Positions 1-6,955 of a stretch of 6,955 nt of DNA are shown here, piece by piece. The stretch's first letter is position 1, and each line of letters opens with the position of its first letter. The notes below the pieces were generated by a model. It saw nothing but the letters and a program-made list of their open reading frames with translations, was not told the origin of the DNA and ran no database searches. This DNA comes from a virus (taxonomy: Duplodnaviria > Heunggongvirae > Uroviricota > Caudoviricetes). The stretch lies in IMG/VR virus record IMGVR_UViG_2684622618_000019; one strand, written 5' to 3'. Position numbers and translations under genes: made by a program.

Positions 1-98
1 CCCAGGCGAACCAGCACCTCCGCACACGGCTGTGCCACATCACGGATATCCCCGGCCCGGGCATCATGCGTGCCCTGCAGATATCGGATCTTTGCCAT
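1..98 (-). CDS. hypothetical head-region protein, N-terminal 32 codons only (continues beyond window start)
   Basis: ATG at 98-96 on the minus strand, open in frame to position 1 (MAKIRYLQGTHDARAGDIRDVAQPCAEVLVRL...). Lies directly downstream of the capsid gene. No family recognised; the only strong SD is about 31 nt upstream, separated by a hairpin. Confidence 0.35.
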   Translation of the reverse strand, partial: MAKIRYLQGTHDARAGDIRDVAQPCAEVLVRL

Positions 99-106
99 AA
101 CCTGTT

Positions 107-128
107 ACGGGAGGCGCACGCCTCCCGT
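107..128 (-). other. GC-rich stem-loop between capsid stop codon and next start codon
   Basis: Minus-strand RNA ACGGGAGGC-GUGC-GCCUCCCGU: 9-bp perfect stem, 4-nt loop. No U-tract follows, so not a canonical terminator. Confidence 0.5.
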
Positions 129-142
129 CCTCCTTATCAGAC

Positions 143-2080
143 TCAGCCGCCGGACGCACTGCCGTAGTTCACTCCGGTGATCACCGCCACCGCCGCAGTA
201 CGGCGACGACGCCAGTTGATCCAGCGCTCCGCACGGATGGCCACGCTGCCTGTCTGGAACATGGAAACCAGCTCCACCGGGGACGGCGTGGTACTGTCGC
301 CGCCCGGCTCAGACTGCATTTCCAGTGATGCCTCGCGGGACATATCCACTGCCACGCCGCCGTCATCCGCCAGATAAATATCCGGGGCATTCACCAGCAC
401 CAGCTGGTCACCCACGTACTGGGAGACAATCACCGGCAGCCCCTGGAAGGAGCCACCCAGCAGGGTCATGTCCGGGTATTCCTTCTGACCCAGCGCATTT
501 TTACGCATGGACAGTGCCAGGGCATTGGTGCTGGACATCAGCCAGACCGCACCGGTGGGCTGCAGGTTTGCTGCCACAAACTGTCCAAACGCAGCCTCGG
601 CATCCGCATCCGGGTTACCGGTTGATGCCGTGCCCTTCACATCATGGGTGATGGACGCCGGGGAGACATCTGCCACTGCGGCTTTTTTCGGGTCCACAAA
701 GTCTGTATCCAGACGCGCCACCACCGCTTCCGCCAGCGCATTACGGACCAGTGCATCAGCAGCCGGACTGGAAAAACGGATCAATTCTTCCGTCAGTACC
801 GCAATGGCCGACACCTTCGCATGACTGAAGGTGATGGATTCAAAATCAAACTTCGTCAGGGGTTTTGCCTTACCCTCACCCACCCAGCCGGCAGCACCGC
901 CGGACACCTGGGCGTGCACACGGATATTGAATGGCACCTGACGAAGTGCAGGGATCCCGCCCTGACCAAATCGCCCGATAATGGTCTGCGGACGCAGGTA
1001 ATCAATAAAGTCCTGTGCGTATTCCTGATATTCAGACAGGCTGCCTGCCCACTGCGGATCCGTGGTGGTCCCCGCGCCCACTGCCGATTTCAGGACATGA
1101 TGCAGACGACTGTCATCCGGATACTGACGACGGGCCACTTCCAGGGCTTCAGATCGGACGCCTTTAGCCGCAGCCAGCGATTTGGCAAAGCGGGCGAAGC
1201 CAATCCCCTTATCCAGTTTCTGCTCCACACGGATCACCGGCGCAGAAGCCACCGCGGCCACATTCCCGTTACCGGCCTGTTTCACCGGCTGCGCCGTGGC
1301 GGCCTTACCGGCTTCCAGTTCACGCAGGCGCTTCAGGTGCGCATCCACCTGACGGATTTCCGCTGCGGTGTTGTCGTAATGCTCTTCCTCCTCCACATCC
1401 AGCGTGCGCCCTTCCTCTGCGGCTTTGGTCATGACCTCCTCAAGGGAGGCTGCCAGCGCTGCACGCTTGTTTTCAAAACTTTTAATCTGTTCGCCAATAT
1501 TCATTATGGTCTTTTCCTTATGAAAAACGGTTGTTGACTGTGCCGCAGCGCCGGCAGAAGATGCGATTTTCACCACCGGTTTCCGGTTGCCGGACGCGGC
1601 AGAAAACGGGCGGTCGTAAGATTTAATGGTCCGGATGGTGCATTCCGCATTCGCGGGCACGGTGACGGCAGACACCTCCATCAGTTCCCAGCGCAGAAAA
1701 TGCAGTCCGCCTCCGTCCAGAAAGGTGTATTCATGGGGACGGAAGCCCACGGACAGCCCCCTGACCAGCCCGGTCTTAATGGCCGCCCAGACCTCATCCA
1801 GCCGGGCAGCCAGTTGCGACGGCATATCCGGTACGGGCTTCACCAGTGTTGCCGTGATTTCCAGCCCTTCGCTGACCCGGCGCACCGTACACTGCCCCAC
1901 CGGGCGGGAATGGTCATGCTGCCAGAGAAACGGGATCGCACTGCCAAACTCCGCGCCCTCCGGCTCCAGGATGTCACCATCCCGATCCGGAGAAGGCGTT
2001 GACGCAATCCCGGTGATCACCCGTTCATCCTCACTGAAGGATTTCACCGTCAGCAGGGAACAGGCCCGTTTAAGAGTCAC
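143..2080 (-). CDS. prohead protease / major capsid protein fusion (HK97-like)
   Basis: 645-aa ORF with GTG start at 2080 preceded by AGGAGG at 5-nt spacing. The N-terminal ~190 aa carry a prohead-protease-like His region (LWQHDHSRP) and a Ser about 54 residues later (VRGLSVGF). From the internal Met at codon 193 (ATG 1504-1502, AAGGA 10 nt upstream) the sequence has a coiled-coil delta-domain-like start (MNIGEQIKSFENKRAALAASLEEV...) followed by a long HK97-fold-like capsid body. One uninterrupted reading frame. Confidence 0.8.
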   Translation of the reverse strand: MTLKRACSLLTVKSFSEDERVITGIASTPSPDRDGDILEPEGAEFGSAIPFLWQHDHSRPVGQCTVRRVSEGLEITATLVKPVPDMPSQLAARLDEVWAAIKTGLVRGLSVGFRPHEYTFLDGGGLHFLRWELMEVSAVTVPANAECTIRTIKSYDRPFSAASGNRKPVVKIASSAGAAAQSTTVFHKEKTIMNIGEQIKSFENKRAALAASLEEVMTKAAEEGRTLDVEEEEHYDNTAAEIRQVDAHLKRLRELEAGKAATAQPVKQAGNGNVAAVASAPVIRVEQKLDKGIGFARFAKSLAAAKGVRSEALEVARRQYPDDSRLHHVLKSAVGAGTTTDPQWAGSLSEYQEYAQDFIDYLRPQTIIGRFGQGGIPALRQVPFNIRVHAQVSGGAAGWVGEGKAKPLTKFDFESITFSHAKVSAIAVLTEELIRFSSPAADALVRNALAEAVVARLDTDFVDPKKAAVADVSPASITHDVKGTASTGNPDADAEAAFGQFVAANLQPTGAVWLMSSTNALALSMRKNALGQKEYPDMTLLGGSFQGLPVIVSQYVGDQLVLVNAPDIYLADDGGVAVDMSREASLEMQSEPGGDSTTPSPVELVSMFQTGSVAIRAERWINWRRRRTAAVAVITGVNYGSASGG

Positions 2081-2090
2081 ATCAGCCTCC

Positions 2091-2119
2091 TGAAAATAAA
2101 AAAACCGCCGCAGCGGTTC
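2091..2119 (-). terminator. candidate intrinsic terminator or attenuator between terL and the protease-capsid gene
   Basis: Minus-strand RNA GAACCGC-UGCG-GCGGUUU followed by UUUUAUUUU, starting about 25 nt after the terL stop and running straight into the SD of the next gene. The stem is short (4 GC pairs plus A-U and G-U). Confidence 0.45.
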
Positions 2120-2143
2120 ATGATGGTTACAGTGTGAACAGGG

Positions 2144-3805
2144 TTATATGAAAAAAACCGCATATTCTTTCTTTTTCGGTTCCGGGTTAAGGGACATCAG
2201 GGAGACCGCATTGAACAGCGCCATCAGCGGGTCAATTTTTCCCCGTCCACTGGCCTGTTTGGTGATAAGAATGGCGTTACCTTTAGGCTCCACCCGGGCA
2301 TTGCCGACACACCAGGCCATCAGGGGCTGGTCACCATGCACCAGCACCCCTTCAGCCAGTTTGCGCTCGGTGGTTTTAATGGCCCCGCCCAGTTTCCAGC
2401 CCTGGCTTATCCCCACCACAATTCCGTCGGGGATCCCGGCTTCCGCCAGTGAATCCAGAATCTGCCCCACCCCTGACGGGTCAATACCGATATGGTCCAG
2501 TAACTCAGCCTCATGAATGCGACGCACATATTCCGCCACTTCCGCCGTGTCATCCCCGACACGCCGGACAATGGTCATATCTCCACAGGCAACAAGATCC
2601 TGAAACCGGGACGCCTCGCTCTTCCGTCGGACCACCGCGGTTTCATGCGCCCAGGCATGGCCCCAGCCCAGCCATTCGCGGGTTTCCCTGTCACGGCCAA
2701 TCACGTACATTCCCAGCAGATCATCCAGGCCCCCGCCGTCAATCCCCACCGTCACCACATCAGCGCGCTGCAGGATATCGTCCAGGCTGACGCGCCTGCC
2801 CTGCTGCTCCCAGAAATCCGCACCCGCCCAGCGGTCAGAACGCAGGGCAAGACCAATTTCCACATTGGCATGTTTTGACATGAAGCCACGAAATGCTTCC
2901 TCACCAGCCTCCCGGGCTTTACGGTACTCCCGGTACAGAAAAGCCTCATCCACCGAATAACCGAGATTCGGGTTAACCATGGCGAGGTTTTCCATCAGCA
3001 GGTGAGCCCCGCTTTCCACCATTTCAGGAGGATGCTCAAAAATCACCGGCAGAAAGTGCGGATCATGAATTTTGCCGTCACGGACATCCCGGGCGTACTG
3101 CAGTTTCTGTCTGAACACCCCGGCTGGCGGCTCATTCGACTGGGTGGTCGTATACACCACAAACCCTTCCGGGCGGGAGGCAAGGCCGCCTATGGCTTCA
3201 CGTAACATGTCCTCCGCTTTGTACTGCTTGCCAAATAACCACAGTTCATCAATCAGCGTCCCCACGGACTTGATACCGGATACCGTATTCGGATCGGCAG
3301 CCACCACCTTCAGGGTGGTGTCCGTCACCCTGTGGGTGATGGTCCGGATATGTGTCTGCACCTGACAGAGGTCATCCAGATCATCGTCCCGTCGTACCAT
3401 ATCCCTGGCAGGGTTGAAGGCGTTAGCCGCCACCTCCACGGTCGGGGCCAGAATGGTGTAGCCCGCCGCCTGCCGCCAGTTCAGTAACAGCGCCGTCATC
3501 ATGATCCCGGCAGCCAGCGTGGACTTGCTGTTTTTCTTGGGGATAAGGATAAAAACTTCCTTGATATGGCGTACACCGGTCTGCGCATCGTAGGAGCCAA
3601 ACAGGGCCGCCACCAGGTCAAACACCCACTGTGCGCAGGACTCCCCGAACGTCGGGCTGCCCGGTGCATCCACAATCCGCAGTTGTTTAAAAATCGCCAG
3701 GGCATGTGCGGCCTGCTCCGGATAAATCGGAGCCGGAATAATCGACAGCCCCTTTTTCAGGCGCTCTGCCCAGTCCGGGCAGGCCGTGCTCCACACAGGT
3801 ATCAT
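2144..3805 (-). CDS. terL: terminase large subunit (Terminase_1 / HK97-type)
   Basis: 553-aa ORF. ATPase-type motifs IPKKNSKSTLAAG and LIDELW, nuclease-domain motifs VGIDGGG and KIDPLMALFNA. ATG 3805-3803 overlaps the terS stop as ATGA; GAGGG SD upstream. Confidence 0.9.
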   Translation of the reverse strand: MIPVWSTACPDWAERLKKGLSIIPAPIYPEQAAHALAIFKQLRIVDAPGSPTFGESCAQWVFDLVAALFGSYDAQTGVRHIKEVFILIPKKNSKSTLAAGIMMTALLLNWRQAAGYTILAPTVEVAANAFNPARDMVRRDDDLDDLCQVQTHIRTITHRVTDTTLKVVAADPNTVSGIKSVGTLIDELWLFGKQYKAEDMLREAIGGLASRPEGFVVYTTTQSNEPPAGVFRQKLQYARDVRDGKIHDPHFLPVIFEHPPEMVESGAHLLMENLAMVNPNLGYSVDEAFLYREYRKAREAGEEAFRGFMSKHANVEIGLALRSDRWAGADFWEQQGRRVSLDDILQRADVVTVGIDGGGLDDLLGMYVIGRDRETREWLGWGHAWAHETAVVRRKSEASRFQDLVACGDMTIVRRVGDDTAEVAEYVRRIHEAELLDHIGIDPSGVGQILDSLAEAGIPDGIVVGISQGWKLGGAIKTTERKLAEGVLVHGDQPLMAWCVGNARVEPKGNAILITKQASGRGKIDPLMALFNAVSLMSLNPEPKKKEYAVFFI

Positions 3806-4365
3806 CCGTTGCCCTCATTATCATTATTCACCACCAGGCGGGGTGGTGGTGGCACCGCAAAACGGTTAGCCGCTTTTTTCGCCGCGTCACCTTTTGCCGA
3901 TTTTTTACCGGCATCCCCTTTTTTGTGGTGCGTGAACTGCGCCAGCTTATAAGCCGCATCCAGCGCCAGCCTGGGGTCGGTATTAATGTTCTCCACCAGA
4001 AGACGCCCCATCGCTTTCACCGGATCGGGAAGACCGTCCTCCATATACTCAATACCAGGAGATATCACCACGGGCGGTGGCATCTCCGGATTTGTTTCGT
4101 CCGGCTGTGGTATTGCAGCCGCCTCACGGCGACGGGGTTTATCCTCCGGCTCTGATTTTTTCTGCCGATAAACAGGAACCTCATCCACCTCCACCGTCTC
4201 GCACTGTTTACGGGCTATAAACGCAAGCACCTCCGGATCTTTTGCCAGCTGCGAGCCTTTAACCCTGGCTGTCTTCGCCGAATAACCGGCGGCAAGGGCT
4301 GACGCTGTTTTGTTTTTCCCGGACATGAGCGCCAGCGCAAATTTTCGTTTTTGCGTTGTCAGCAC
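3802..4365 (-). CDS. terS: terminase small subunit (Terminase_2-like N-terminal DNA-binding region)
   Basis: 187-aa ORF with GTG start at 4365 preceded by GGGAGGAGG. N-terminal motif KRKFALALMSGKNKTASALAAGYSAKTARVKGSQL is typical of this terS family. Translationally coupled to terL by a 4-nt overlap. Confidence 0.8.
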   Translation of the reverse strand: MLTTQKRKFALALMSGKNKTASALAAGYSAKTARVKGSQLAKDPEVLAFIARKQCETVEVDEVPVYRQKKSEPEDKPRRREAAAIPQPDETNPEMPPPVVISPGIEYMEDGLPDPVKAMGRLLVENINTDPRLALDAAYKLAQFTHHKKGDAGKKSAKGDAAKKAANRFAVPPPPRLVVNNDNEGNG

Positions 4366-4439
4366 AGCCTCCTCCCGGGTCCAGAACGCACTCAGCCGGG
4401 TATGGTTCAGCCCATTTTTCCCGGCGTCTCATGCCGCAA

Positions 4440-4563
4440 ATGTTAACTGCTGCCTGGTTAACATTTGCTGAAAAAGCCTGTTAACATTTTTTCCGCACAA
4501 CAAACTGAATAATAAAGATAAAAACCGCAAAAATGCCCGGGCAGCCAGTTAACATGTTAACTG
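4440..4563. promoter_or_regulatory. array of CAGTTAACAT-type half-sites including an 18-bp perfect palindrome; candidate terminase recognition (cosB-like) region
   Basis: Half-sites at 4440-4447 (ATGTTAAC), 4457-4464, 4480-4487 (GTTAACAT) and the perfect palindrome CAGTTAACATGTTAACTG at 4546-4563. All sit in the 289-bp HNH-terS intergenic region. Confidence 0.35.
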
Positions 4564-4654
4564 CCCTGAAACGGGAATTTTTTCTCTGCGTGAGAGGGGG
4601 CGCGGTGTCCAGGGCGATCGTTTTTTTTCGCCGGATGATCCCCCCCGGGTCTGG

Positions 4655-5020
4655 TCACAGGCCAGTGATTCCGTCGGCCCTGAGCGTGCCATCAGGAAGC
4701 TCAGGCAACGTCGGATCAGGCATACCACTCGCCGCTTCACTCGCTGACTTCTGGCGATGGCATTCAGTACAGAGGGTCCAGAGGTTCGTCTCCTCATTAC
4801 CACCACCGAACTGAAGTGCAATGCGGTGATCGAGTTCACTGTCACAAAGGTCAACCACGCGTCTACAGAGACAACAGTGTCCGGCATCCCTCCGCCAGAT
4901 ACGACGTTTGAGGGAAACCCGGGCACTGCCACTGACACGACGCTGTTCCCCCCTCAGGACATTTATCCGCCGGGTGTTCAGAGTTTTGATTCTGCCCGGT
5001 AACGTACGAAGCACAGCCAT
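4655..5020 (-). CDS. HNH endonuclease (phage packaging-associated)
   Basis: 121-aa ORF; HNH core HCCLCRRVVDLCDSELDHRIALQFGGGNEETNLWTLCTECHRQK. ATG at 5020 with GAGGA 6 nt upstream. Position immediately upstream of terS is typical of HK97-like cos phages. Confidence 0.85.
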   Translation of the reverse strand: MAVLRTLPGRIKTLNTRRINVLRGEQRRVSGSARVSLKRRIWRRDAGHCCLCRRVVDLCDSELDHRIALQFGGGNEETNLWTLCTECHRQKSASEAASGMPDPTLPELPDGTLRADGITGL

Positions 5021-5061
5021 GTAAAATCCTCGCCATATAGCTTGTCACCAGAGGAAAGAAA

Positions 5062-5289
5062 ATGTCATCGAAAAACCGGCCCCGCAGAACAACAACCCGC
5101 AACATCCGATTTCCAAACCAGATGATTGAACAAATTAACATCGCTCTTGACCAGAAAGGTTCAGAAAATTTTTCTGCGTGGGTCATTGAATCTTGCCGCC
5201 GGGAGCTGGCAGCAGACATAAAATATGCCCGTCAGTTGACTATAAAAAAGAATGATACACAGTATGCTCTGCGATGGCTGTTCATATAA
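5062..5289 (+). CDS. YlcI/YnfO-like small protein (DUF3950-like), copy A
   Basis: 75-aa ORF, ATG 5062 with GAGGAAA SD. The core NIALDQKGSENFSAWVIESCRRELA is conserved at protein level with the fragment at 5738-5848 despite many synonymous nucleotide differences, which argues for real coding. Family name is from memory of E. coli prophage YlcI, not a search. Confidence 0.7.
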   Translation: MSSKNRPRRTTTRNIRFPNQMIEQINIALDQKGSENFSAWVIESCRRELAADIKYARQLTIKKNDTQYALRWLFI

Positions 5290-5420
5290 CTATTTCTTTA
5301 TATTGCTGAATTTATAAAAACTCACAGACATTAGCTGTATTAATTCCGAATTGAAATAATCAGCCATATAGAATAAAAATAAAGCATAACAATAATAATC
5401 TTCTACCCAATCAGTACATT

Positions 5421-5452
5421 ACTGCTGTGACTCCAACACGGCAGTTTTTTTA
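5421..5452 (+). terminator. intrinsic terminator (plus strand)
   Basis: ACTGCTGTG-ACTCCAA-CACGGCAGT (9-bp stem with one G-U) followed by TTTTTTT; about 130 nt downstream of the YlcI-like gene. Confidence 0.6.
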
Positions 5453-5468
5453 TTGAACAGATTCCAGT

Positions 5469-5642
5469 TTCTTCCACCATCGCACCGGACGGGCGACCAT
5501 GAGGGGAGAACGCCGCGCTCCGTTTACGCGGTAAACCCCGGTGTGTATCGTTTTTGATTATCCCCGCACACTCTCGCAGAGGAGTCTCCCTGTCGGGCTG
5601 CGGTCTCTGTTAATGCAGGAATACGGCGACGATACGGCGCAT
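5469..5642. repeat. 174-bp conserved non-coding element, copy A
   Basis: Direct repeat of 6286-6459 with 9 mismatches in 174 bp (about 95% identity). Flanking sequence on both sides is unrelated between copies. No reading frame is conserved between the two copies. Confidence 0.9.
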
Positions 5643-5651
5643 CAGCAAAAC

Positions 5652-5687
5652 TTAGTTCAGGCACTGAGTGCGGATATAGTCCTGTGC
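5652..5687 (-). CDS. 3' end of a second Rz-like i-spanin gene, truncated by the gap
   Basis: Minus-strand translation ...AQDYIRTQCLN-stop (TAA at 5654-5652) parallels the C-terminus of the Rz at 6723-6955 (...LQEYIRTQCIN-stop); the nucleotide stretch 5662-5684 matches 6733-6755 at 22 of 23 positions. Confidence 0.55.
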   Translation of the reverse strand, partial: AQDYIRTQCLN

Positions 5688-5737
5688 NNNNNNNNNNNNN
5701 NNNNNNNNNNNNNNNNNNNNNNNNNNNNNNNNNNNNN
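5688..5737. other. run of 50 N: assembly or scaffold gap of unknown true length
   Basis: Exactly 50 N. Genes on both flanks are truncated by it and cannot both fit into 50 bp. Confidence 0.95.
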
Positions 5738-5848
5738 AATATCGCCCTTGAACATAAAGGTTCCGGTAACTTTTCAGCGTGGGTTATTGAAGCCTGCAGA
5801 AGAAGGCTGTCAACAGAGCGTTCGGGTATGAATTACATAATTAAGTAA
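5738..5848 (+). CDS. YlcI/YnfO-like small protein, copy B, C-terminal part only (5' end lost in gap)
   Basis: Frame starting at 5738 gives NIALEHKGSGNFSAWVIEACRRRLSTERSGMNYIIK-stop (TAA 5846-5848), matching the core of the 5062-5289 protein. No in-frame start exists in the visible sequence left of the gap. Confidence 0.65.
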   Translation, partial: NIALEHKGSGNFSAWVIEACRRRLSTERSGMNYIIK

Positions 5849-5977
5849 CATGGTGTTCACAGAACACACAGTTACCGGACACATCAGTTTTCCATTCGTC
5901 CCCCGGCAGTACAGGCTTCCCGTCTGACGGGATAGCCTGAAAAAACACAGAAAATTATTTGTTATAATTAATATAAC

Positions 5978-6118
5978 TTACTCAAAAAAAAGCGACGAGA
6001 AAATCAGCATCAACGAGCAATAAGCGCCAATACGTGATAACAAATGGCAGCCATATTTATCTGCAGTATAAGCAATGGACAGGATAACCACACCAGAAAC
6101 CGTCAGCATAAAATCCAT
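5978..6118 (-). CDS. 46-aa hydrophobic small protein (candidate membrane peptide); not in the supplied ORF track
   Basis: ATG 6118-6116 with GAGGAAG 8 nt upstream, TAA at 5980-5978. Product MDFMLTVSGVVILSIAYTADKYGCHLLSRIGAYCSLMLIFSSLFFE has two hydrophobic stretches. Sits in an AT-rich insert present only in copy B of the module. Confidence 0.4.
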   Translation of the reverse strand: MDFMLTVSGVVILSIAYTADKYGCHLLSRIGAYCSLMLIFSSLFFE

Positions 6119-6285
6119 TTGAACTTCCTCGGACAAAATCGACTCATCTAAAGATTTACAGCTCTTTTTATTATCAATATGTTAAAAGTAAAATAAACAG
6201 ATGTTCAATAATACGAATACAAAAACGTGCTGAAAATCAATGAATCCATTTCTGTGTTATCAATTAATAGTGATAAACATCCGGC

Positions 6286-6459
6286 TTCTTCCACCATCGC
6301 ACCGGACCAGCGACCATGAGGGGACAACGCCGCGCTCCGTTAACGCGGTAAACCCCGGTGTGTATCGTTTTTGATTATCCCCGCACACTCGCGCAGAGGA
6401 TTCTCCCGGTCGGGCTGCGGTCTCTGTTAATGCAGGAATACGGCGACAATACCGCGCAT
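6286..6459. repeat. 174-bp conserved non-coding element, copy B
   Basis: See copy A (5469-5642); constant offset of 817 bp. Confidence 0.9.
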
Positions 6460-6474
6460 GAATAATAAGGTCGC

Positions 6475-6699
6475 TCAACACACTGGCTGTAATGCAGCGG
6501 ATACCATGCGGCATTTAGCGGCATTCATCGTACACTCAACGGTTAGCTCTTCATTCGTGGCATTCACCTGAAAGGTCCTGGAGTGTAATTGCGTACATTT
6601 ACCACTGAACGAACCTTCAACAAGAACACGACCACGCTGCAAAATACGGAACGGAATTGTTCCCTGAAAAGGCTTTACGGTTACCAATAATTTCTTCAT
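6475..6699 (-). CDS. 74-aa hypothetical protein inserted between Rz and the 174-bp element
   Basis: ATG 6699-6697 with GGAGA SD 6 nt upstream; the track's TTG at 6717 is less likely. Product MKKLLVTVKPFQGTIPFRILQRGRVLVEGSFSGKCTQLHSRTFQVNATNEELTVECTMNAAKCRMVSAALQPVC has 4 Cys and no recognised family. Absent at the equivalent position in copy A, where the Rz stop lies 9 nt from the repeat. Confidence 0.5.
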   Translation of the reverse strand: MKKLLVTVKPFQGTIPFRILQRGRVLVEGSFSGKCTQLHSRTFQVNATNEELTVECTMNAAKCRMVSAALQPVC

Positions 6700-6722
6700 G
6701 CATTCTCCGAATAACAAAAATA

Positions 6723-6955
6723 CTAGTTAATACACTGAGTGCGGATATATTCCTGAAGCATTCTCAATGCTGCCTGGTCGCTGATGATTCCGTCTCTGAT
6801 ACCGAGAACGTTTCGTCCAGCAACCGGAGAGAGTTCGACGGCGGCATCATTGCCCACGCCGGAGGTGCCGGTGGCTTCACGCACGGTACCGGGGCAGGTG
6901 GCGTTGATCCGCAGGCGCTTACGACCAGCGGCAACATCAGCACGCAGAGTTTCAT
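6723..6955 (-). CDS. Rz: i-spanin Rz, C-terminal 76 codons (5' end beyond window)
   Basis: Minus-strand frame from 6953 reads ...TGTSGVGNDAAVELSPVAGRNVLGIRDGIISDQAALRMLQEYIRTQCIN-stop (TAG 6725-6723), a lambda-Rz-like C-terminus. Contains Rz1 embedded in the +1 frame. Confidence 0.8.
   Translation of the reverse strand, partial: ETLRADVAAGRKRLRINATCPGTVREATGTSGVGNDAAVELSPVAGRNVLGIRDGIISDQAALRMLQEYIRTQCIN
6764..6955 (-). CDS. Rz1: o-spanin Rz1 lipoprotein, embedded in Rz
   Basis: 63-aa ORF MKLCVLMLPLVVSAC... with lipobox VSAC and the proline-rich stretch CVKPPAPPAWAMMPP, close to lambda Rz1. ATG lies at the window edge, so upstream context is unseen. Confidence 0.8.
   Translation of the reverse strand: MKLCVLMLPLVVSACGSTPPAPVPCVKPPAPPAWAMMPPSNSLRLLDETFSVSETESSATRQH

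Follow-up and report, generated by a model that had tools for sequence, protein, structure and literature searches.

Several kinds of structured or non-coding RNA have been described in phages and prophages, and they form the background for the 176-nt element reported here, two copies of which lie in a 6,955-nt stretch of virus DNA (IMG/VR record IMGVR_UViG_2684622618_000019, below called the window). This stretch corresponds to the late part of a lambdoid prophage resembling BP-4795 and the Shiga toxin (Stx) phages; its late genes all lie on the minus strand, which is what "late sense" refers to below. Judged from comparative sequence data, the element is very probably a conserved structured RNA on the late-sense strand, and it occupies a fixed place between the Rz lysis gene and the small terminase gene. 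In setting it resembles the prophage small RNAs (sRNAs) of enterohaemorrhagic and enteropathogenic E. coli (EHEC and EPEC), such as AgvB, AsxR, StxS, EcOnc, PasA-D and svsR, which are non-coding, reside in the same lambdoid prophages and often occupy moron sites. These sRNAs are 50-270 nt long, have their own promoter and a poly-U terminator, and are found at pR'/Q-holin, in cI or among structural genes (PMC4104026; bioRxiv 10.64898/2026.05.13.724894; PMC12803456). Hfq-dependent prophage sRNAs are recognised by an own promoter, a U-tailed terminator and an Hfq crosslinking peak; the element has neither of the first two, and the four Sakai copies that were located have no such peak in uninduced cultures.

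Two other systems can be compared in the way they are transcribed. The put RNAs are about 70 nt long with two stem-loops, and are located just downstream of early promoters. Like the put RNAs of HK022, the element would be a structured phage RNA that lacks an own promoter, is made within an operon transcript in one required orientation, and might exert a cis effect on genes at variable distance. It differs from put in its 176-nt length, about seven helices and kink-turn-like motif, and in its location in the late operon after Rz; the HK022 genome has no match to the element model, and nothing specific to antitermination, one of the roles proposed in a preliminary description of this DNA, was found in our analysis. 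The sib RNA of lambda is a simple extended hairpin cleaved by RNase III. It bears similarity to the element in that a structured RNA arises past a gene block (int for sib) solely when antiterminated transcripts read through, whereas the rod of the element is interrupted by large conserved internal loops and the kink-turn-like motif, and morons often separate it from the upstream genes. The GOLLD, ROOL and HEARO RNAs are likewise conserved, covarying phage or prophage motifs that were defined before any function was known, but they have no sequence or model similarity to the element, which is much smaller and confined to lambdoid phages. Finally, the phi29 pRNA has a similar length (about 174 nt) and adjoins packaging genes. 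The element has no match to it in Rfam and is absent from lambdoid relatives with the same packaging modules, e.g. HK97, and lambda packaging is not known to need an RNA.

The structure model is an RNAalifold consensus completed by hand, from which a covariance model (R1) was built, as the preliminary description had proposed. Two alignments were used for pair counts: A1, with 34 diverse copies, and A2, with 67 distinct copies including independent metagenome and Salmonella-type sequences, which was aligned to R1. The predicted fold would have three parts, namely a 92-nt kinked rod (P1-P5), a hairpin closed by GGG/CCC (P6/H6), and a 3' hairpin (H7) with the tail GGUGGAAGAAAC. The parts are placed in the window as follows.

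5467-5642, minus strand: element copy A, predicted 176-nt structured RNA (R1 score 206.8 bits, E=4.6e-57)
6284-6459, minus strand: element copy B (R1 score 203.6 bits)
5545-5635, minus strand: 5' rod domain of copy A, P1-P5, from the RNAalifold consensus and pair counts
5629-5635/5545-5551, minus strand: helix P1
5609-5623/5559-5571, minus strand: helices P2-P3
5598-5602/5575-5579, minus strand: helix P4
5595-5597/5588-5590, minus strand: helix P5
5624-5628 (CGCCG) and 5552-5558 (AUCAAAA), minus strand: near-invariant internal loops in the rod of copy A
5572-5608, minus strand: kink-turn-like motif of copy A, with the bulged strand AGA-GA-C at 5603-5608 and the non-bulged strand N-G-A at 5572-5574
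6420-6425 and 6389-6391, minus strand: kink-turn-like motif of copy B
5537-5539/5503-5505, minus strand: P6 (GGG/CCC) of copy A, which encloses H6; the P6/H6 region is 5503-5539
5527-5531/5513-5517, minus strand: H6 (CCGCG/CGCGG) of copy A, the stem noticed in the preliminary description
5493-5497/5479-5483, minus strand: H7, the 3' hairpin of copy A
5467-5478, minus strand: the invariant purine-rich tail after H7

Conservation of the element has sharp boundaries at both ends, and compensated stems are visible in the first alignment. For 76 unique copies RNAalifold gave a consensus energy of -25.9 kcal/mol on the minus strand versus -7.3 kcal/mol on the plus strand, and the minus-strand consensus of A1 was -34.0 kcal/mol. 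In A1, 97.5% of the pair cells are paired as against 31-67% with slid partners, and two-sided changes occur in 10 pairs versus 3.6±1.1 in shuffled alignments, none of 500 shuffles reaching the observed number. The corresponding A2 values are 97.8% paired cells and two-sided changes in 17 of 41 pairs, versus 6.4±1.8 after shuffling (0/500). Compensatory two-sided changes are found in A2 at all five pairs of H6, H7 covaries at four of its five pairs (e.g. UCGC/GCGA, CCGC/GCGG and CCAG/CUGG), and lambda and DLP12 have an extra swap from C-G to G-C in P2-P3. The 176-nt copies A and B differ at 10 positions, nine of them unpaired and one changing a C-G pair to U·G (P≈0.018 for at most one paired position affected). 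Covariation thus backs the structured RNA suggested in the preliminary description, with the fold on the late-operon strand. That suggestion was based on the single stem CCGCG/CGCGG, the arms of which are identical in both copies with one difference in the loop (position 5525). The stem is real and corresponds to H6, but it is only one of approximately seven helices, and the best conserved part is a different one, the 92-nt kinked rod at the 5' end; the 3' domain is variable, with H6 replaced or degenerate in some lineages. Two further pairings, one long-range (CACCGG/CCGGUG) and the other between the J1/2 loop and the 3' arm of H6, were judged by eye in the alignment and rejected, as the variants gave no support.

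The strand can be read from cells that pair in one orientation only. G·U cells, which pair on the minus strand only, outnumber A·C cells, which pair on the plus strand only, by 148 to 8 in A1 and by 287 to 17 in A2, where G·U is present at 27 pairs and A·C at 9. This clearly points to the window minus strand as the functional one, i.e. the sense strand of the Q-dependent late (pR') transcript with the Rz, HNH and terminase genes. An RNA from the plus strand, antisense to late transcription and expressed in lysogens as a bor leader or as an Hfq-binding sRNA or one derived from a 3' untranslated region (3'UTR), was favoured initially on the basis of a G·U in 933W, bor downstream and -10-like hexamers, and was dropped after the systematic G·U/A·C counts. 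In lambda, 933W and DLP12, bor is located 115-180 nt downstream on the plus-equivalent strand, weak -10-like hexamers are present in the upstream flank, and a strong Hfq peak from cross-linking and analysis of cDNA (Hfq-CRAC; EcOnc10/11/12) adjoins the element on that strand. The ratio of 287 to 17 nevertheless contradicts a plus-strand fold, as does the low RNAalifold energy of that strand, and bor is missing beside many copies. After coordinate calibration (see below) the Hfq peak coincides with the YnfO-like terminator, whose end is 12-15 nt away from the element, and in this arrangement plus-strand transcripts thus end without reaching the element. A plus-strand RNA is accordingly very improbable.

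For comparison with Hfq-bound RNAs, all 63 Hfq-CRAC candidates in Table S2 of Tree et al. (PMC4104026) were checked against four element copies of O157 Sakai (Sp3, 903,299-903,474; Sp9, 1,779,457-1,779,632; Sp10, 1,946,755-1,946,930; Sp15, 2,919,088-2,919,263). None of the 63 peaks overlaps these four copies, and since the cultures were uninduced this has little bearing on a late-sense RNA. The coordinates were calibrated with AgvB1, which is found at 1,941,920-1,941,981 in the current record while the listed peak is at 1,941,783-1,941,835, a shift of about +128. EcOnc10/11/12, which are third to fifth by score in the table of Tree et al. 2014 and have no listed northern result (PMC4104026), at first appeared to lie within the element, on its opposite strand, and were discarded when the shift placed them at the terminator described above; EcOnc11 then reads ...ACUGCUGUGACUCCAACACGGCAGUUUUUU. 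The window has a matching terminator hairpin at 5403-5452 (plus strand), ACUGCUGUG...CACGGCAGU followed by U7, downstream of its YnfO-like gene. The three peaks may reflect an Hfq-binding RNA that derives from the 3'UTR of the YnfO-like gene and recurs in Sakai Sp9, Sp10 and Sp12. EcOnc06 (about 177 nt) and EcOnc13 (about 187 nt) are of promising size but are located at the pR' moron site. The sRNAs svsR, PasA-D and AgvB/AsxR are excluded by their position, size and terminators: svsR lies in cI, the Pas sRNAs are short and are found near Q/holin or among structural genes, and AgvB/AsxR and their relatives are at the pR' moron site (PMC4104026; bioRxiv 10.64898/2026.05.13.724894; PMC12803456). 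StxS was also considered, and the element is not this RNA. The Rfam models for AgvB, AsxR, STnc100 and Esr41 gave no match to the element.

A promoter and terminator scan found no sigma-70-like site and no terminator inside the element on either strand. As there is no own promoter or canonical terminator, we infer that the element is transcribed from pR' only, and its RNA would be made solely within the Q-antiterminated late polycistronic mRNA during lytic growth. The GC-rich H6 hairpin is followed on the late strand by GUUUGU/GUUUAU and is located just upstream of the packaging genes, and it could be thought that H6 and the U-rich stretch insulate these genes by stopping polymerases not modified by Q (e.g. 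from moron promoters), keeping the terminase and head genes silent in lysogens. In an intrinsic terminator, the 8 nt that directly follow a GC-rich stem would contain 5 or more U. The element has 3-4 U there in 59 of 67 copies and at least 5 in only 4 of 67, and H6 was not flagged by the terminator scan. Moreover, H6 is enclosed by P6, and some lineages have a degenerate H6 or another sequence in its place, whereas conservation is highest in the 5' rod, which a terminator could dispense with. The insulator is for these reasons improbable.

The internal loop between P3 and P4 fits, at the sequence level, the kink-turn consensus of a canonical stem, a 3-nt bulge, G·A and A·G pairs and then P4. 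In A2 the A-U/C-G of the C-stem is retained in 66-67 of 67 copies. The 1b·1n G·A pair is kept in 65/67 and 67/67 (the two nucleotides, respectively) and the 2b·2n A·G pair in 64/67 and 66/67, while the bulge varies freely (AGA, CAU, UAU, AAU) and 3n can be any base. This suggests a compact tertiary fold and not a plain hairpin. An RNase III processing site has about two turns of nearly continuous double-stranded RNA; in the element P2-P3 has 11+2 bp and P1 has 7 bp, split by the 5x7 internal loop and the kink-turn-like motif.

Comparison with known RNA families gave no relative of the element. None of the 4,227 models of Rfam 15 matched at the gathering threshold. At E≤1 the whole window gave one chance match to a small nucleolar RNA (snoRNA), outside the element; at E≤10 the element alone gave a chance match of 12.8 bits to a microRNA, and the lambda copy one of 14.8 bits to a snoRNA. 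Full-text literature searches by gene names, sequence, position and kink-turn likewise found no RNA that matches the element. The element is absent from the known families and is a candidate new family among the orphan phage structured RNAs. Self-cleaving ribozymes are often phage-associated, and the near-invariant internal-loop nucleotides between covarying helices, the kink-turn, which is also found in several riboswitches, and the lack of any matching family would be in line with a self-cleaving ribozyme of a new kind, or with a switch of the late operon that senses a ligand or factor, the kinked rod being the catalytic or sensing core. The element bears no likeness to any Rfam ribozyme or riboswitch, however, and has no conserved expression platform, its 3' domain being the variable part; a transcriptional switch is implausible here because the Q-modified polymerase ignores terminators. 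We consider a ribozyme or switch quite unlikely.

The element is non-coding, and the preliminary description was right that it is conserved without a conserved reading frame, downstream of the lysis genes. The plus-strand open reading frame (ORF) from 5541 is long in copy A and reaches only 35 aa in copy B, and the minus-strand ORF is longer in copy B (84 aa) than in copy A (46 aa). No frame is open throughout the 34 aligned sequences, the variable columns are spread evenly over the codon phases (41/41/38), and gaps of a single nucleotide (66 runs) or of two (34) are more frequent than gaps of three (28). Nor does the element correspond to the 3' portion of any known protein gene. At the 5' end, a mini-ORF of 10 codons (AUG...UAA) was rejected, as its start is CUG, CAG or CCG in other lineages. 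Hypothetical coding sequences have been annotated across the element in several records, and a small protein gene would correspond either to plus-strand ORFs of 37-60 aa or to a minus-strand ORF of 67 aa. These annotations are small and contradict one another in frame, strand and extent, and both window copies have an in-frame TAA; together with the absence of a universally open frame and of codon periodicity, and the common indels of 1-2 nt, this makes a small protein extremely unlikely. The 67-aa ORF is labelled 'Rz-like spanin' in RefSeq in phage PA2 (NC_028449, our L005; 1443-1646, minus strand) and similar records. It is not conserved in the family, the true Rz is located about 500 nt upstream, and the label is probably a propagated mis-annotation.

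A repeat search found one direct repeat in the window, 180 nt long (5463-5642 versus 6280-6459) with 94% identity, which is far past chance, and the sequence occurs thousands of times elsewhere. The nine differences in 174 nt reported in the preliminary description are exact over 5469-5642 versus 6286-6459; the element itself comprises 176 nt in each copy. The flanks, described as unrelated, are so only in the immediate vicinity of the copies. Two more collinear blocks are repeated in the same order, one in the YnfO/DUF3950-like gene (5137-5196 versus 5738-5797, 80%) and the other at the 3' end of Rz (5653-5684 versus 6724-6755, 87.5%). The surrounding features of the window are listed below.

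143-2080, minus strand: protease-capsid fusion gene (ORF list, homologous records, Pfam)
2144-3805, minus strand: large terminase (TerL)
3802-4365, minus strand: small terminase subunit (TerS; Pfam Terminase_2 and annotation of homologous records), a late gene downstream of the element
4655-5020, minus strand: HNH endonuclease
5062-5289, plus strand: DUF3950/YnfO-like gene
5652-5687, minus strand: 3' end of Rz of prophage A, collinear with the BP-4795 Rz and truncated by the gap; from here late transcription proceeds into copy A
5688-5737, no strand: scaffold gap of 50 N, joining the Rz-to-terminase junctions of two O157-type prophages
6723-6955, minus strand: Rz/Rz1 spanin genes of prophage B (Pfam Phage_lysis 1.4e-20; 'lysis protein' in FORC_044), truncated at the window end and upstream of copy B in late sense

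The premise that both copies belong to one locus does not hold, as it is the product of the scaffold join at the 50-N gap. Positions 1-5687 are collinear with a BP-4795-type prophage, while 5738-6955 are 100% identical to a different prophage in complete O157 genomes, which has a single element and its own TerL-TerS-HNH-YnfO set, 99.3% identical to window 2137-5196. At the gap Rz is truncated 34 nt before its end, and on the other side the YnfO-like gene begins at about codon 26. Copies A and B are therefore alleles from two prophages and not a tandem pair or local duplication, and because the gap joins two paralogous Rz-to-terminase junctions their spacing of 817 bp is an assembly artefact without meaning. 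The 5' end of copy A is 9-12 nt past the Rz stop codon, and that of copy B about 15 nt past the stop codon of an 80-aa moron ORF. This ORF (6475-6717, minus strand), between Rz and copy B, has no Pfam match and is hypothetical in O157 genomes; related sequence is also found after the first element copy of the IMG/VR contig L039. A second moron ORF (5978-6136, minus strand), encoding a 52-aa hydrophobic peptide without Pfam match, flanks copy B in an AT-rich spacer. Further downstream, the 290-bp gap between the HNH and small terminase genes has six exact or near-exact GTTAACAT sites in both orientations (4440-4561), and this cluster is probably a terminase recognition (cosB-like) array of an HK97-type packaging module.

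The nucleotide search against prophage collections, suggested in the preliminary description as a check, showed a widespread family that is conserved far outside the two window copies. Of 5,426 complete E. coli genomes, 1,863 carry the element, with about 4,500 occurrences in total (median 2 and maximum 9 per genome) and without annotation; 398 phage records also have it, at 60-100% identity. Carriers include lambda, 434 and lambda-like phages, 933W, Stx1/Stx2 phages, BP-4795, Salmonella phages ES18 and SPN3UB, and the K-12 prophage DLP12; BP-4795 and many Stx1/Stx2 phages have copies 100% identical to copy A. In wild-type lambda the element is at 46,867-47,028 between bor and lambdap78, and in DLP12 of K-12 at 579,008-579,170 between borD and ybcV. 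No phage protein is common to all carriers. The element is confined to lambdoid phages of Escherichia, Shigella and Salmonella and one Intestinirhabdus genome. A scan of species-representative genomes with one 22-nt pattern found only a few Escherichia-like genomes and Intestinirhabdus, and BLAST searches from the most divergent copy stayed within Escherichia, Shigella and Salmonella phages. E. coli-type copies together with lambdoid genes are also present in L017, a metagenome-assembled genome (MAG) of Candidatus Nanosynbacter, and in L030, a soil Proteobacteria MAG; these contigs are most likely contaminating or mis-binned Enterobacteriaceae prophage. The covariance model gave no match in P22, HK97, HK022, N15 or Qin, for P22 and HK97 even with filters off.

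Position was classified for about 145 copies from phage records, IMG/VR and species-representative genomes, and order and orientation are invariant: Rz > element > small terminase, the latter of Nu1-, HK97- or 933W-type. Variable morons are found on either side (Bor<, ORF80>, Rha>, DUF4406>, YnfO<, DUF1398<, HNH>). Among the approximately 270 copies examined, none was found away from the Rz-terminase junction, at other late-operon moron sites for instance. A remnant of a miniature inverted-repeat transposable element or insertion sequence is not indicated, since the element has no terminal inverted repeats, shows no target duplication in 13 flank contexts and occurs in one position and one orientation only. 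A genuine tandem pair, in sequence without N, is present in L039 with the order Rz - moron - element - moron - element - Nu1 (copies at 5056-5230 and 6006-6180); PhiR46_1, YDC107_1 and the metagenome contigs L209, L211 and L238 also have two places each. In such natural tandem pairs the copies bracket a late-sense moron, an arrangement suggestive of moron shuffling at the junction by unequal recombination between the elements of different phages. The bracketed moron in L039, the sharp boundaries at a mosaic junction and the free exchange of flanks might indicate a feature of the DNA itself, either a linker promoting homologous recombination between phage modules or a protein-binding site. Such a feature predicts neither compensatory changes in seven helices nor that, on one strand, G·U should be 17 times as frequent as A·C. 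Recombination may use the element, yet this leaves the sequence constraints unexplained, and the protein-binding site put forward in the preliminary description likewise fails to account for the strong strand asymmetry. A role at the DNA level is very unlikely indeed.

As to function, the best overall explanation is a non-coding RNA module of about 176 nt on the late mRNA that acts in cis as a processing or stability boundary, and we regard this explanation as evenly balanced. By analogy with sib, the element would mark a boundary past which the morphogenesis segment of the late mRNA has a fate independent of the lysis segment, acting in cis via a conserved host factor. This specific mechanism is the likeliest of those considered, but it is more tentative and, taken alone, less likely than not. 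The position of the element seems to matter, as no copies are found at the other late-operon morons, and a cis role at the boundary between lysis and packaging is therefore favoured. That the conserved partner would be a host factor follows from the conservation of the loops across E. coli and Salmonella phages without a common phage protein.

Several observations weigh against a cis-acting structured RNA of this kind. Single-sequence folding is no more stable than that of shuffled sequences (z=-0.23), and the structure thus rests wholly on comparative data, in which the A2 pair counts are biased towards the model to which the sequences were aligned and the shuffle controls overstate significance, as many copies are closely related. 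The existence of a discrete RNA, and its processing, are likewise predictions. A pure processing or stability element has no obvious need of invariant loop nucleotides or a kink-turn, and a strictly local cis role is weakened by the morons which often stand between the element and both the lysis and the terminase genes. The element is missing from P22, HK97, HK022, N15 and Qin, and the part of lambda in which it is found has classically been considered dispensable (PMC10695390); any function is for these reasons accessory.

The main rival is a released non-coding RNA that binds a host factor in trans: the 176-nt module would be excised from the late transcript, accumulate, and sequester or redirect a conserved host protein or RNA, such as a nuclease, a chaperone, RNA polymerase or a defence sensor. 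The sharp conservation edges at both ends, the invariant unpaired nucleotides and kink-turn-like motif, which suggest a specific tertiary fold or binding surface, and the tolerance of the module for any neighbour and for occurring twice are consistent with this possibility, and conservation across phages without a common phage protein again points to a host partner. On the other hand, late expression alone would allow other moron sites of the late operon, whereas the approximately 270 copies are all at the Rz-terminase junction; a discrete RNA has not been reported, and the four Sakai copies have no Hfq-CRAC peak in uninduced cultures. Action in trans is possible, though we find it unlikely. 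Somewhat less likely still is that the element represents either a new class of self-cleaving ribozyme or a dedicated RNA capturing a conserved host factor (nuclease, polymerase or defence sensor) in lytic growth. If true, this would add a new functional RNA class in the best-studied phage, present in a third of E. coli genomes.

Although lambda and Stx phages have been studied intensively, this 176-nt block is unannotated in the lambda, K-12 and O157 reference genomes, and annotation pipelines call contradictory ORFs across it. If functional, the element would represent a missed layer of regulatory or catalytic RNA in the late operon, with bearing on the balance of expression between lysis and virion assembly and on the biology of Stx phages, and EHEC genomes have up to 9 copies each. 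The element merits an Rfam family, which would reduce spurious ORF calls and provide a marker for the lysis/packaging boundary of lambdoid prophages.

A weak match of HK97 to the element model was rejected, as it corresponds to a different conserved structure. The gap after Rz in HK97 (L153) has a strong terminator (37493-37515, plus strand) followed by a different hairpin-rich stretch of about 100 nt (about 37563-37665, plus strand) that folds with z=-3.5 versus shuffles. This stretch is conserved in HK022 and the mEp phages, as well as in Salmonella and Klebsiella phages, in which its location can differ (about 10.5 kb in SPN3UB), and it may be a separate structured RNA.

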